64,000 bases of DNA, taken from Dromaius novaehollandiae (taxonomy: Eukaryota). The notes under the pieces are model-generated. The model searched no databases, was not told the origin of the DNA, and saw nothing but the letters and a program-made list of their open reading frames with translations. This document shows, piece after piece, positions 1-64,000 of this stretch. The translations under genes were made by a program, and so were the position numbers. The stretch is from positions 62,001 to 126,000 of the forward strand of contig NC_088135.1 in NCBI RefSeq assembly GCF_036370855.1, given 5' to 3'. Numbering within the stretch: position 1 is the first letter of the stretch; the number at the start of each line of letters is the position of its first letter.

Positions 1-745
1 AGCACCCCATAACCACCCCATAGCACCCCATAGCCTCCCATAGCGCCCCATAGCGCCCCATAACCACCCCATAGCCCCCCATAGCGCCCCATAACCACCC
101 CAGCCCCATAGAGCCCCATAGCACCCCATAGCCCCCCATAGCAGCCCCCAGCCCCATAGCGCCCCATAGCGCCCCATAGCCTCCCCCAGCCCCATAGCGC
201 CCCATAACCACCCCCCCAGCCCCATAGCACCCCATAGCACCTCAGAACCATCCCCCAGCCCCACAGCCCCCCATAGCACCCCATAACCACCCCCCCAGCC
301 CCATAGCGCCCCATAACCACCCCCCCAGCTGCATAGCACCCCATAGCACCTCAGAACCGCCCCATAGTCCCCCCAGCCCCATAGCGCCCCATAGCCCCCC
401 ATAGCACCCCATAACCACCCCATAGAGCCCCATAGCACCCCATAACCACCCCCAGCCCCATAGCGCCCCATAGCAGCCCCATAGCGCCCCACAGCGCCCC
501 ATAGCCTCCCCAGCCCCATAACCACCCCCCCAGCCCCATAGCGACCCATAGCCCCCCCAGCCCCATAACCACCCCATAGCAGCCCCATAACCACCCCCCA
601 GCCCCATAACGCCCCATAGCCCCCCCATAGCACCCCATAACCACCCCCCCAGCCCCACAGCACCCCATAGCCTCCCCCCAGCCCCATAGCCCCCCACAGC
701 GCCCCATAACCACCCCCAGCCCCATAGCAGCCCCACAGCGCCCCC
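1..745. repeat. Approximately 9-10 bp satellite CCCCATAGC(A/G)(C)
   Basis: Visible direct tandem repeats of agcaccccat / agcgccccat / aaccacccc. Confidence 0.9.
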
Positions 746-3700
746 TAGCGCCCCCCAGCGGAGGGTGGGGGGGGTCCCGTACCGCGGGGGGGCCGCCGGG
801 GCGCAGCAGCAGGGCGCCGGGCCCGGGCAGGGGGGGCAGCAGCCCCACGGCGACCCCCATGGCCGCCCCCAGCGCCCCCCGCGCCCGCCGCAGCGCCGCC
901 CAATCAGGGGGCACCCGGGGCCTGGGGGGGGGGAGGGGCGGAAGTGACGTCAGAGACCCCGCCCCCATCCCCCCCCAAATCCTTCCCCCCCCCCCCCCCG
1001 CCCCGCGCGCCTGCCCCAGTGCTGCGCCGCTGGGGGGCACCCGGGGACTGGGGGGGCGGAAGTGACGTCAGAGACCCCGCCCCCACAGCCCCCCCCCGCG
1101 CCTGCCCCAGTGCTGCCCCGCTGGGGGCGGAAGTGACGTCACAGACCCCACAGCCCCCCCCACAGCCCCCCCCCCCGCGCCTGCCCCAGTGCTGCGCCGC
1201 TGGGGGGGCACCCGGGGCCCGTGGGGGCGGAAGTGACGTCACAGACCCCGCCCCCACAGCCCCCCCACAGCCCCCCCCGCGCCTGCCCCAGTGCTGCCCC
1301 GCTGGGGCGGAAGTGACGTCAGAGACCCCGCCCCCACCCCCCACAGCCCCCCCCGCCCCAAATACCCCCCCCCGGAGCCCCCCTATGGCCCCCTATAGAC
1401 CCCCAGTAGCCCCCAGAGCCCCCCAGTGCTCCCAGTGCCCCCTCCCAGTGCTCCCAGTAACCCCTCCCAGTGCTCCCAGTGCTCCCAGTAACCCCTCCCA
1501 CCCCTCCCAGTGCTCCCAGTGCTCCCAGTATCTCCTCCCATCTCTCCCAGTGCTCCCAATATCCCCTCCCAGTGCTCCCAGTGCCCCCTCCCAGTGCTCC
1601 CAGTGCTCCCAGTAACCCCCCCACTGCTCCCAGTAACCCCTCCCACCCCTCCCAGTGCTCCCAGTATCTCCTCCCATCTCTCCCAGTGCTCCCAATATCC
1701 CCTCCCAGGGCTCCCAGTGCTCCCAGTAACCCCCCTCCCATGGCTCCCAGCGCCCTCCCAGTGCCCCCAGCACCCCCCCCAGCGCTCCCAGTGCTCCCAG
1801 TGCTCCCAGTATCCCCTCCCAGTGCCCCCTCCCACTCCTCCCAGTGCTCCCAGTGCCCCCAGTGCCCCCCCCAGTGCTCCCAGTGCTCCCAGTGACCCCA
1901 GTAACCCCCCTCCCATGGCTCTCAGCGCCCTCCCAGTGCCCCCAGCACCCCCCCGCAGCACTCCCAGCGCTCCCAGTGCTCCCAGTGCTCCCAGTAACCC
2001 CTCCCAGTGCTCCCAGTGCTCCCAGTACCCCCCCAGTGCTCCCAGTGCTCCCAGTAACCCCCCTCCCATCGCTCCCAGCACCCTCCCAGTGCCCCCAGTG
2101 CCCCCCAGCGCTCCCACTGCTCCCAGTGCTCCCAGTATCCCCCCCAGTGCTCCCAGTGCCCCCTCCCAGTGCTCCCAGTACCCCCTCCCAGTGCTCCCGG
2201 TGCTCCCAGTAACCCCCCTCCCATGGCTCCCAGCGCCCTCCCAGTGCCCCCAGCACCCCCCCCAGCGCTCCCAGTGCTCCCAGTGCTCCCAGTAACCCCC
2301 CTCCCATGGCTCCCAGCACCCTCCCAGCGCCCCCCCCAGTGCTCCCAGTGCTCCCAGTGCTCCCAGTATCCCCTCCCAGTGCCCCCTCCCACCCCTCCCA
2401 GTGCTCCCAGTGCTCCCAGTAACCCCCCTCCCATGGCTCCCAGCACCCTCCCAGTGCTCCCAGTGCTCCCAGTAACCCCTCCCAGTGCTCCCAGTATTCC
2501 CTCCTAGTGCTCCCAGTAACCCCTCCTATCAATCCCAGTGCTCCCAGTGCTCCCAGTAACCCCCCTCCCATCGCTCCCAGTGCCCTCCCAGTGCCCCCCC
2601 CAGCGCTCCCAGTGCTCCCAGTGCTCCCAGTATCCCCTCCCAGTGCCCCCTCCCACTCCTCCCATCGCTCCCAGTGCCCTCCCAGTGCCCCCGCCAGCGC
2701 TCCCAGGGCTCCCAGTGCTCCCAGTAACCCCCCTCCCATGGCTCCCAGCACCCTCCCAGCGCCCCCCCCATGGCTCCCAGTGCTCCCAGTGCTCCCAGTA
2801 ACGCCCCTCCCATTGCTCCCAGCACCCTCCCAGTGCTCCCAGTGCTCCCAGTAACCCCTCCCAGTGCTCCCGGTGCTCCCAGTGCTCCCAGTAACCCCTC
2901 CTATCACTCCCAGTGCTCCCAGTGCTCCCAGTATCCCCTCCCAGTGCTCCCAGTAACCCCCCTCCCATGGCTCCCAGTGCCCTCCCAGTGCCCCCAGCGC
3001 CCCCCCCAGTGCTCCCAGTGCTCCCAGTAACCCCTCCCAGTGCTCCCAGTAACCCCTCCTATCACTCCCAGTGTTCCCAGTATCCCCTCTCAGTGCTCCC
3101 AGTGCCCCCTTCCACCCCTCCCAGTGCTCCCAGTGCTCCCAGTAACCCCCCTCCCATGGCTCCCAGCACCCTCCCAGTGTCCCCAGCCCCCCCTGCAGCG
3201 CTCCCAGTGCTCCCAGTGCTCCCAGTAAACCCCCTCCCATGGCTCCCAGTGCTCCCAGTAACCCCCCTCCCATCGCTCCCAGCACCCTCCCAGTGCCCCC
3301 AGTGCCCCCCCAGCGCTCCCAGTGCTCCCAGTGCTCCCAGTAACCCCCCTCCCATGGCCCCCAGCGCCCTCCCAGCACCCCCCCCAGCGCTCCCAGTGCT
3401 CCCAGTGCTCCCAGTAACCCCCCTCCCATGGCCCCCAGCGCCCTCCCAGCACCCCCCCCAGCGCTCCCAGTGCTCCCAGTACTCCCAGTAACCCCCCTCC
3501 CATGGCTCCCAGTGCCCTCCCAGCGCTCCCAGTGCTCCCAGTGCTCCCAGTACCGGCGGTGCTGGGCGCGGAGGCGCCGCAGGGCCCCCCGCACCCCGGG
3601 GACCCCCAGTGCCGCCCGCAGCTCCCGGCGGCCCCAGCTTGGGGGGGGGGCGACACCGGCCCCCGCCAGCACCCGCCGCACCAGCGACCCCCGGCTGGGG

Positions 3701-62950: not shown

Positions 62951-64000
62951 GGTCGTTAGGGGCCGGCGGCTGACGAGGACCAAGCAGTTAATTAGCGCCG
63001 CGCGGCTAATTGCCCCCCCCCGCCCCTCCCCCGCTTTGGGTTTATTTAAAGGCAATAAAAGACTCGAGTTAATTAACGGTGACTTAATTACGGGCCGCGG
63101 TTGGGGGGGGGAGGGGAGGGGGCCCAGGCGTCCGGGTTTGGGGGGGGGGTTGGGGCAGCCGGACGCCTGGGCCCCTTGTTGGGGGGTGGGGGGGGTGAGG
63201 GAGGGCCCACGGCAGTGCCCGGACGCCTGGGCCCCTTTTCCCGGACGCCTGGGCCCCTTTCCCGGACGCCTGGGCCCCTTCCCGGACGCCTGGGCCCTCT
63301 CCCGGACGCCTGGGCCCCTTTCCCGGACGCCTGGGCCCCTCGTCCCGGACGCCTGGGCCCTTTTCCCGGACGCCTGGGCCCCTTCCCGGACGCCTGGGCC
63401 CCTCACCCGGACGCCTGGGCCCCTTTCCCGGACACCTGGGCCCTTTTCCCGGACGCCTGGGCCCCTTCCCGGACGCCTGGGCCCCTTCCCCGGACGCCTG
63501 GGCCCCTCTCCCGGACACCTGGGCCCCTCACCCGGACGCCTGGGCCCCTTTCCCGGACGCCTGGGCCCTTTTCCCGGACACCTGGGCCCCTTTTCCCGGA
63601 CACCTGGGCCCCTTTCCCGGACACCTGGGCCCCTTTTCCCGGACACCTGGGCCCCTCCCGGACGCCTGGGCCCCTTTCCCAGACGCCTGGGCCCTTCACC
63701 CGGACGCCTGGGCCCCTTTCCCGGACGCCTGGGCCCCTCTCGGACACCTGGGCCCTTTTCCCGGACGCCTGGGCCCCTCCCTGGATGCCTGGGCCCCTTC
63801 CCGGACGCCTGGGCCCCTCTCGGACGCCTGGGCCCCTCTCGGACGCCTGGGCCCCTTTCCCGGACGCCTGGGCCCCTCCTGGACACCTGGGCCCTTTCCC
63901 GGACGCCTGGGCCCTTCACCCGGACGCCTGGGCCCCTCCCGGACGCCTGGGCCCTTCTCCCGGACGCCTGGGCCCCTCCCGGACGCCTGGGCCCTTCACC

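Follow-up and report, generated by a model that had tools for sequence, protein, structure and literature searches.

The stretch examined here is 64,000 nucleotides of the emu, Dromaius novaehollandiae (NC_088135.1, positions 62,001 to 126,000 of the forward strand; the whole of it is called the window below), a eukaryotic gene cluster of mostly 60-79% GC (about 70%). Along it lie TEP1, OSGEP, APEX1, PIP4P1 and PNP, in an order that we take to be that of human 14q11.2, and their exons were found in order in the sequence (for TEP1, those of its 5' part). Between the exons and between the genes runs a GC-rich minisatellite with a unit of about 21 bp, which recurs on both strands and in introns of all five genes. 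Here we show that its arrays belong to a single family shared with kiwi, describe where they start, stop and turn, and argue that the family is probably an old, dispersed and non-coding component of repeat-packed, gene-rich DNA.

Repeat-filled introns are known from the dot chromosomes of birds. Chicken dot-chromosome introns consist of up to 93% simple repeat, including exon-derived copies, and their growth has been described as "sequence stuttering", a strictly local and recent process (Hron et al. 2026, PMC12954441). In the zebra finch, tandem repeats make up >70% of the intron sequence of dot chromosomes, with unit lengths at multiples of 10-11 bp, and mention is also made of "a specific minisatellite sequence" that occurs both in introns and between genes (Smeds et al., bioRxiv 10.1101/2025.10.17.683159; bioRxiv 10.1101/2025.10.14.682431).

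Gene content and repeat load of the locus

Tandem repeats called by Tandem Repeats Finder (TRF) cover 85.5% of the window, and the remainder consists of islands of 60-500 bp that coincide with exons. Exon positions were obtained by tblastn with human proteins as approximate probes, and gene identities were therefore re-checked by PDB and Pfam searches with the window's own translations (Table 1). Together with protein searches, which returned "telomerase protein component 1-like" for the TEP1 region, they showed the five gene names given in an earlier note on this DNA to be correct. Scanning it for Rfam families and for tRNAs gave no match in the window. Coding exons and splice sites are intact in all five genes, and the repeats end at exon borders. 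The exception is the last coding exon of PNP (60124-60456): it contains repeats of 9 bp and 15 bp (60221-60268 and 60392-60427) that keep the reading frame and code for stretches rich in Asp/Gly and in Glu, which the human protein does not have; in PNP, tandem expansion has entered a coding exon.

One 21-bp family on both strands

The 20-mer named in the earlier note, GGGGCCCAGGCGTCCGGGAA, has 804 matches at up to 3 mismatches on the two strands (shuffle mean 0.14), and the 14-bp core GGGCCCAGGCGTCC has 838 at up to 2 mismatches (521 on the + and 317 on the - strand). These core matches cluster into 22 arrays of at least 3 copies, or 24 when arrays cut by small exons are counted apart, and the family totals 20.2 kb, 31.5% of the window (Table 1). 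Cores most often stand 21, 20 or 19 bp apart (range 19-22 bp), the unit being made of a 17-bp core, GGGCCCAGGCGTCCGGG, and a variable purine linker of 2-5 nt. Positions 2-18 of the unit are 88-100% conserved in a profile of 742 non-overlapping units, and arrays normalised for orientation are 85-93% identical to one another. The consensus, GGGGCCCAGGCGTCCGGGAAA, has a single T and no dyad. Composite units that still contain the core measure 24 bp at 9568-11623, 31 bp at 12522-13741 and 48 bp at 60516-61561. At least 17 introns of the five genes carry the family, which is also present in the OSGEP-TEP1 and other spacers, downstream of PNP and probably within the PNP 3' untranslated region (UTR), where the array at 60479-61561 lies.

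At the 5' end of TEP1, coding exon 1 (12251-12304, - strand), MEPPGAAEEAPEQVEALK, interrupts the minisatellite; the identical peptide is encoded at the kiwi locus. Since the 1.4 kb from upstream of this exon to the 3' end of OSGEP is composite array throughout, the TEP1 promoter region appears to consist of the 31-bp composite repeat.

The earlier note had proposed one 20-21 bp consensus on both strands, and had named distinct, unrelated units as the finding that would speak against it. The identity across arrays and the conserved 17-bp core bear the proposal out, and the arrays are one family. The statement that this one minisatellite fills the introns and UTRs went too far: the family is real, but it makes up only 31% of the window, with 55% belonging to other families. 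Where dozens of arrays and hundreds of copies had been announced, the copies (about 840) stand, but the arrays come to about two dozen. Nor does the unit account for the size of APEX1, as had been suggested. Within this 7.5-kb gene the family forms one 0.7-kb array (9.4% of the gene, against 76.5% for other repeats), and the length of APEX1 is therefore owed to other repeats. The genes have indeed been expanded by tandem repeats in general, but not by the 21-bp unit as such.

Table 1. Genes, arrays of the 21-bp family and inverted arms in the window (sense, coding strand of the host gene)
Feature	Position	Strand	Details
TEP1, 5' part only		-	Pfam TROVE, E 2e-43 (concatenated exons); 21-bp family 53% of region
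OSGEP		-	Confirmed by search of own translation; 21-bp family 40%
APEX1	Last exon 29749-30261	+	PDB matches to APE1, E 1e-75; 21-bp family 9%
PIP4P1		-	Pfam Tmemb_55A, E 1e-98; 21-bp family 33%
PNP		+	Confirmed by search of own translation; 21-bp family 32%
~42-copy array	3719-4597	+	Fills the TEP1 intron flanked by exons 4598-4708 and 3552-3718; sense strand C-rich; 5' splice site GTGAGCC, then array
32-copy array	6496-7147	-	TEP1 intron after exon 7149-7275; 141-bp higher-order repeat; G-rich on sense; begins 3 nt past 5' splice site GTA; left inverted arm
Three arrays (7276-7806, 8005-8543, 8696-9397)	7276-9397	+	Fill three TEP1 introns; exons at about 7802-8005 and 8539-8696 lie between them; sense strand C-rich
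84-copy array	9568-11623	+	Fills the TEP1 intron flanked by exons 11629-11775 and 9401-9565; most copies are of a private 24-bp variant with extra linker of ACAAGA- or ATGGGA-type
Arrays in TEP1 intron 1 (11777-12241) and TEP1 5' flank/OSGEP-TEP1 spacer (12330-13741)	11777-13741	+	31-bp composite unit (core and C-rich spacer); 467-bp higher-order repeat
Arrays in OSGEP introns i9 and i8	14151-15182	-	Divided by exon 14375-14449; G-rich on sense
59-copy array, OSGEP intron i6	16160-17484	-	G-rich on sense; GAG/GTGAG, then array; left inverted arm
Arrays 17596-17654 and 17761-18495, OSGEP introns i5 and i4	17596-18495	+	C-rich on sense; right inverted arm
Sole APEX1 array of the family, intron A	24487-25190	+	5' splice site GTGAGCAG, 702 bp of array, 31-nt pyrimidine tract ending CAG
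Array in spacer of APEX1/PIP4P1 3' ends	33694-34226	+	
Array of last PIP4P1 intron	36240-36880	-	G-rich on sense; last core 11 nt from 3' splice site
Arrays in two PIP4P1 introns	36990-38184	+	Divided by exon 37470-37523; C-rich on sense; inverted partner of 36240-36880 around exon at about 36890-36990
Array of PIP4P1 intron	40972-41402	-	Between exons 41412-41558 and 40857-40964; 10 nt from either splice site
Short arrays 43801-44292 (-), 44500-44692 (-), 44774-45033 (+)	43801-45033	-, -, +	PIP4P1-PNP spacer, upstream of PIP4P1
59-copy array	52446-53889	-	PNP intron before exon 53902-54077; C-rich on sense
72-copy array	54090-55844	+	PNP intron after exon 53902-54077; G-rich on sense; inverted arm
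48-bp composite (core and C-rich spacer), ~21 copies	60479-61561	+	From ~20 nt past PNP stop codon
Array downstream of PNP	63161-63994	-	Up to window end
Inverted arms, OSGEP (exons 17488-17559, 17684-17737)	Around 17488-17737		1.3 kb and 0.8 kb; 89% identity over 744 bp
Inverted arms, PNP	Around 53902-54077		1.4 kb and 1.75 kb; 85% identity over 1068 bp
Inverted pair, TEP1	Around 7149-7275		
Inverted pair, PIP4P1	Around about 36890-36990		

Array edges, orientation and inverted arms

All 22 arrays were turned G-rich strand up and their 60-bp flanks compared. Within introns, an array starts 3-15 nt past the 5' splice site and ends 6-31 nt short of the 3' splice site, whichever way it is oriented. 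Where the sense strand is G-rich, the array directly follows the 5' splice site in OSGEP (GAG/GTGAG), APEX1 (CAG/GTGAGCAG) and PIP4P1 (ACC/GTGAGTGCGG); where it is C-rich, CAG/GTGCGCCC likewise leads into the array three times, in TEP1 and PNP. The shortest gaps before the acceptor AG, 6-11 nt, are those of two PIP4P1 introns and one TEP1 intron, and around PNP exon 53902-54077 one array ends 19 nt upstream and an inverted one starts 13 nt downstream. Array-bearing introns, in other words, are splice signals plus array.

The sense strand of the arrays is G-rich eight times and C-rich nine times, so there is no transcription-strand preference. Along the window, strand orientation alternates in 12 blocks, and four exons or exon pairs are flanked by inverted arms of 0.5-1.75 kb (Table 1); the orientation switching and inverted repeats around exons described previously, including the case named in OSGEP, were thus recovered. 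A recent inverted or segmental duplication behind these arms was considered and rejected, as no pair stands out and all are 85-93% identical; the best-matching array partners are simply the purest arrays.

The two kinds of switch differ in spacing. For all five switches from - to + the spacer measures 81-208 bp, and for all six from + to - it measures 271-7416 bp (p = 0.004, exact rank test). The former lie at 7147-7276, 17484-17596, 36880-36990, 44692-44774 and 53889-54090, and four of them are single exons. Between neighbouring family introns read in gene sense, orientation changes from C-rich to G-rich four times and never in reverse.

Orthologous loci in kiwi and neognath birds

Orthologous loci, a single one from a single assembly for each species, were obtained through APEX1 and TEP1 homologues from six neognaths, namely duck (L001), king vulture (L002), king quail (L003, APEX1 3' side only), flamingo (L004), frogmouth (L005) and potoo (L006), and from the kiwi Apteryx rowi (L007). 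Arrays of the 21-bp family are present in kiwi, and none was found at the orthologous loci of the six neognaths. The five neognath loci run through TRF are still 62-93% tandem repeat (duck 88%, king vulture 64%, king quail 93%, flamingo 62%, frogmouth 80%); the kiwi locus, where 2.9 kb are gaps, reaches 48%.

Within the 13.2 kb of the kiwi locus, gaps included, the core has 58 exact and 101 near-exact matches, and the kiwi consensus is identical to that of the window. The kiwi arrays occupy the same OSGEP and TEP1 introns in the same orientation, and the kiwi OSGEP-TEP1 spacer is built of the same 31-bp core-plus-C-rich composite. Exons of kiwi and window are 94.2% identical at the nucleotide level, which speaks for relatives of different genera. 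The last APEX1 exon shows 62-84% identity to many bird orders, the closest neognath orders standing at 76-84% and roughly equal, as fits a palaeognath. With unit, introns and orientation all shared, the 21-bp family predates the split from kiwi and is not recent.

When 152 kb of neognath loci were searched with a profile of three units, every match at E <= 0.02 fell on the sense strand of APEX1 intron A, five in flamingo and one in king vulture (E 4e-4 to 2e-2). The flamingo intron carries GGGACCCCAGGCGTCCGGGGGGGG, and that of the king vulture a 21-bp unit, GGGGGCACCCAGGCATTTAGG. These matches suggest, with weak to moderate force, that the 21-bp unit may descend from an ancestral local repeat in APEX1 intron A and may have spread from it in the palaeognath lineage.

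APEX1 itself, with the same exons, has an annotated span of 4.3 kb in flamingo (L004 10001-14327), 8.6 kb in both king vulture (L002 10001-18563) and frogmouth (L005 10001-18611), and 16.5 kb in duck (L001 10001-26540). This roughly fourfold variation in intron size across bird orders is due to tandem repeats.

Array orientation and intron strand skew

Sense-strand GC skew, taken per orthologous intron, correlates between the window and the neognath mean (Spearman 0.73, p = 3e-4, n = 20), and does so although the repeat units differ between the two. Of the 13 introns that carry the family, 11 have their arrays turned the way the sign of the neognath skew would predict (one-sided p = 0.011). 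Because orientation follows intron skew, the inverted arms around exons are best explained as incidental, one family having colonised adjacent introns whose bias was already opposite.

The match may arise from invasion steered by homology to resident skewed repeats, or from selection on strand composition. A broader proposal, which we offer tentatively and would not call probable, is that introns have kept a G-rich or C-rich sense "identity" since the palaeognath-neognath split while their repeat units were replaced, so that the minisatellite could colonise them only in the matching orientation.

Decay, amplification in place and sharing of variants

One consensus runs through all arrays, and the unit must therefore have spread between introns rather than arisen separately in each. 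CpG transitions at 4 positions account for 207 of about 337 core substitutions, a pattern characteristic of methylated DNA that decays neutrally. Individual arrays hold private 24-, 31- and 48-bp variants, and longer blocks of 141 bp and 467 bp recur as higher-order repeats, 92-93% identical; both features argue for amplification in place.

Rare 16-mers are common to arrays up to 45 kb apart (for example 8697/54091 and 11777/63161). Neighbouring arrays share them no more than non-neighbours do (p = 0.26), with the exception of the two PNP arms, which are the only reciprocal best partners and have 59 rare 16-mers in common. Stepwise spread from neighbour to neighbour was rejected on this absence of a neighbour excess. 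A degenerate unit with CAGGAATC occurs only in the OSGEP and PNP inverted pairs, in both arms of each and 36 kb apart, which hints that these arrays are related by exchange or common descent. Its sites are 16547, 17043, 18383, 18444, 52801-53351 and 54238-55343.

Quadruplex, hairpin and coding potential

The G-rich strand had been credited with a spacing compatible with G-quadruplexes. A predictor was run with a criterion of four runs of at least three G, loops of 1-7 nt and a G4Hunter score of at least 1.2. The G-runs of the 21-bp unit are separated by 11-nt loops, and canonical motifs number 8 in the 20.2 kb, rising to 327 only with loops of up to 12 nt. The consensus scores 0.76 in G4Hunter, and 0-21% of 25-nt windows reach 1.2. 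The family thus falls short of the canonical definition, and its quadruplex potential is weak. Much stronger candidates are other families, at 1402-3551, 4744-5402, 5548-6308, 48319-51968 and 57696-60103, with G4Hunter scores of 1.4-2.1 and 15-79 canonical motifs each. As for hairpins or cruciforms, either strand of the 21-bp unit, folded as single-stranded DNA, was no more stable than its shuffles.

Stop codons are missing from the unit in every one of its six frames, which makes long open reading frames (ORFs) trivial; the window contains 56 of at least 330 aa, overlapping and on both strands. The long pseudo-ORFs pointed out previously are indeed a by-product of a stop-free unit of ~21 bp, but the description "collagen-like" has no biological meaning. 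The reading frame drifts across arrays with their 19-22 bp units, all six frames are open and the arrays lie between splice sites, all of which speaks against a protein-coding collagen-like repeat. The translated repeat had no match in a collection of 5.8 billion protein sequences.

Other repeat families

Tandem repeats outside the 21-bp family make up 55% of the window and fall into at least 15 unrelated families, including CCCAGTG-type 10-mers, GGGGTCAC, CCCCCCCAGA, TTGCACCCCCC and longer units of 62 bp, of 83/104 bp (AT-rich), of 51/52 bp (G-rich) and of 145 bp (with GCACATGCTAA). AT-rich islands (GC 35-48%) stand out in this 70%-GC locus at 25438-28717 (the 83/104-bp units, in APEX1 intron B), 56093-57680 (TTAGCATGTAA-type, in a PNP intron) and 61684-62945 (GGTTAATTAA-type, downstream of PNP). 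Array periods gather at multiples of ~10.4 bp (10, 21, 31, 41, 52, 62, 73, 83, 93, 104, 135, 145, 166 and so on): 32 of the 51 non-redundant arrays fall within 1 bp of such a multiple, against 9.8 expected, a count whose items are not independent, given that higher-order repeats are multiples of a base unit.

One family separate from the 21-bp unit is derived from an exon. This 93-bp repeat (15.7 copies, 30238-31696) begins in the last exon of APEX1, 24 nt before the stop, and copies the final codons (...CPITLYLAL) together with the stop codon. Partial copies of the same exon lie beside APEX1 in king quail (about 10, L003 541-10533), frogmouth (2, L005 19457-20763) and duck (3, L001 22759-24640), and a similar 93-bp unit is found in flamingo (L004 14351-15517). 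Since such copies occur in several birds, exon stuttering at this place is either ancient or recurrent.

Other arrays keep their position across bird orders: the 10-mers GACCAGTATA and CCTCCCAGTG ahead of the first APEX1 coding exon, GCACA[TC]GCTAA in OSGEP intron 2, GGGGTCAC in OSGEP intron 1 and CCCCGCCCC..TTAAG in PIP4P1 intron 1 (window 22859-24292, 19160-20712, 20852-21427 and 41768-42392; orthologous in L001, L002, L004, L005 and L007). Both the site and the motif of these arrays are old, although the copies themselves turn over. In the spacer where APEX1 and PIP4P1 face each other with their 3' ends, a 27-33 bp unit with CCAAGATGGCCGCC, a motif that is presumably close to the YY1 consensus, is arrayed at 34549-34726 of the window, and also in king vulture (L002 22161-22406), flamingo (L004 17431-17720) and frogmouth (L005 22251-23695).

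Discussion

We consider it probable that the 21-bp family is an old, dispersed, non-coding, GC-rich minisatellite residing in repeat-packed, gene-rich DNA. Its unit would probably have come from an ancestral local repeat in APEX1 intron A. On entry into an intron, its orientation would have been matched to the prior G-versus-C bias of that intron, as could happen if homology or microhomology with resident skewed repeats guides invasion, or if the bias itself is selected. Replication slippage and unequal exchange would then lengthen and shorten the arrays where they stand, template switching or ectopic gene conversion between arrays would keep them alike across 64 kb, and splice-site selection would set where they end. 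We saw no sign of a sequence-specific function of the repeat.

Several points weigh against this account. The link to APEX1 intron A consists of weak profile matches in G-rich sequence, and exchange between arrays is read from the sharing of variants. The skew rule is broken by OSGEP i6 and TEP1 e|f, and introns are not independent of each other, with same-sign runs along TEP1. Each species is represented by one locus and one assembly, the gaps of the kiwi assembly lying in arrays. Finally, the kiwi consensus is identical despite a 6% difference in exons, and a 145-bp intron repeat common to the two birds reaches only 70-72% in alignment; an identical consensus could reflect constraint rather than concerted evolution.

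This last point leads to the rival that survives best, and which we nonetheless regard as unlikely: that the arrays are a functional cis-element, made of protein sites or of a splicing enhancer or silencer, with sequence and orientation under selection. The core conserved over about 740 copies, the unchanged consensus in kiwi and an orientation that tracks a skew pattern conserved across birds all fit such a role. So do arrays placed 3-31 nt from splice sites, where they must contribute to the branch region or pyrimidine tract of some introns, and the fact that all four switches between adjacent family introns run from C-rich intron through exon to G-rich intron in gene sense. However, the near-equal numbers of G-rich and C-rich sense strands give no consistent RNA polarity, and the family fills intergenic spacers as well as introns. 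The same introns work with unrelated units in the six neognaths, and the CpG decay and the variable linker look neutral.

Dispersal in both orientations is also what transposition would give, had the arrays travelled inside a transposable element as its own tandem repeat, in the manner of SVA, Helitrons or some MITEs, and been inserted into many introns either way round. We hold this to be very improbable. The oriented 60-bp flanks share only splice-site and exon sequence, and no terminal sequences or target duplications were seen; shared non-repeat flanks are absent as judged by the flanks of the 22 arrays, not by repeat libraries. Introns are filled by arrays from edge to edge, orientation is non-random relative to ancestral skew, and dot-chromosome euchromatin has been described as being without interspersed repeats (PMC12954441).

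In general architecture the window agrees with published dot-chromosome introns, a phenomenon that the earlier note did not bring in. The assignment is made on one haplotype, by repeat content and not by chromosome or by the extensive length variation between individuals that also marks the class: the window combines ~70% GC and 85.5% tandem repeat with introns full of degenerate units (10-30 bp long, or multiples of this), intact exons and, in the 93-bp repeat at the APEX1 3' end, exon-derived stutter. Its unit lengths at multiples of 10-11 bp recall the zebra finch, and its CpG decay fits the high methylation reported for dot chromosomes. Exons that bound the arrays and a true exon-derived stutter would also be expected if each array had arisen by its own local "sequence stuttering", as proposed for chicken, with the likeness of the arrays due to convergence. 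For the origin of the unit this is hardly credible, and is contradicted by an identical 17-bp core in 22 arrays and ~840 copies, which cannot be convergent, and by rare variants shared between distant arrays; it is still valid for growth within arrays. Unlike the stuttering of Hron et al., which is local, confined to one intron and recent, the 21-bp family extends over five genes and their spacers, and it is old, with position, orientation and consensus shared with kiwi. It also follows an intron skew shared with neognaths, of which the dot-chromosome papers carry no report. An assembly artefact of mis-joined or collapsed repeats from long reads, conceivable in GC-rich regions that show sequencing dropouts and are absent from older assemblies (bioRxiv 10.1101/2025.10.14.682431), has next to nothing in its favour given the ordered exons and intact splice sites of five genes, the private variants and higher-order repeats, and an independent kiwi assembly with the same unit in the same introns.

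Among satellites, CNM (41 bp) and sate-21 of chicken microchromosomes and the W chromosome are centromeric or heterochromatic and carry a TTTTC...GAAAA dyad (Huang et al. 2023, PMC9974502). The 21-bp family resembles them in its ~21-bp period, its 41-42 bp TRF dimers and its higher-order repeats, and their association with small GC-rich chromosomes may be counted as a further likeness. The emu unit, unlike these satellites, has neither T-run nor dyad and lies inside the introns of expressed housekeeping genes, so that it does not belong with them. Mammalian hypervariable minisatellites of the Jeffreys type are GC-rich loci that share a G-rich core. GC-rich units of 10-60 bp, strand asymmetry and a core common to dispersed loci are found in both, as would be growth by slippage and recombination-associated conversion; the arrays of the window differ in that they take the place of almost all non-coding DNA in a gene cluster. 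In mammals, inverted Alu pairs flank exons that form circular RNAs, and long complementary intronic repeats likewise flank exons of TEP1, OSGEP, PIP4P1 and PNP here (Table 1). The resemblance is one of layout, seen in DNA, between tandem arrays and single elements. If introns do keep a strand identity, exons between C-rich and G-rich copies of the family would be looped out of pre-mRNA, giving circular RNAs or exon skipping, and the identity would imply either selection on strand composition (through splicing, R-loops or replication) or strongly homology-guided invasion.

Repeat-filled introns of dot chromosomes are as a general phenomenon already published. No paper with the core sequence came up in a full-text literature search, a search for palaeognath dot-chromosome minisatellites returned nothing relevant, and the exact two-unit DNA pattern had no match among metagenome contigs; the 21-bp family is new by the literature, not by comparison with repeat libraries. 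Its conservation with kiwi and its skew-following orientation would be what interests specialists. On the practical side, dozens of false long ORFs and inverted repeats on the kilobase scale will mislead gene callers and aligners. The minisatellite-rich, gene-dense half of bird dot chromosomes has been assembled only recently, and its origin is an open question. To this question the locus contributes a palaeognath counter-example to strictly local and recent stuttering, and the 21-bp family gives a testable handle on the mechanism by which such repeats spread and on the constraint of intron strand composition.

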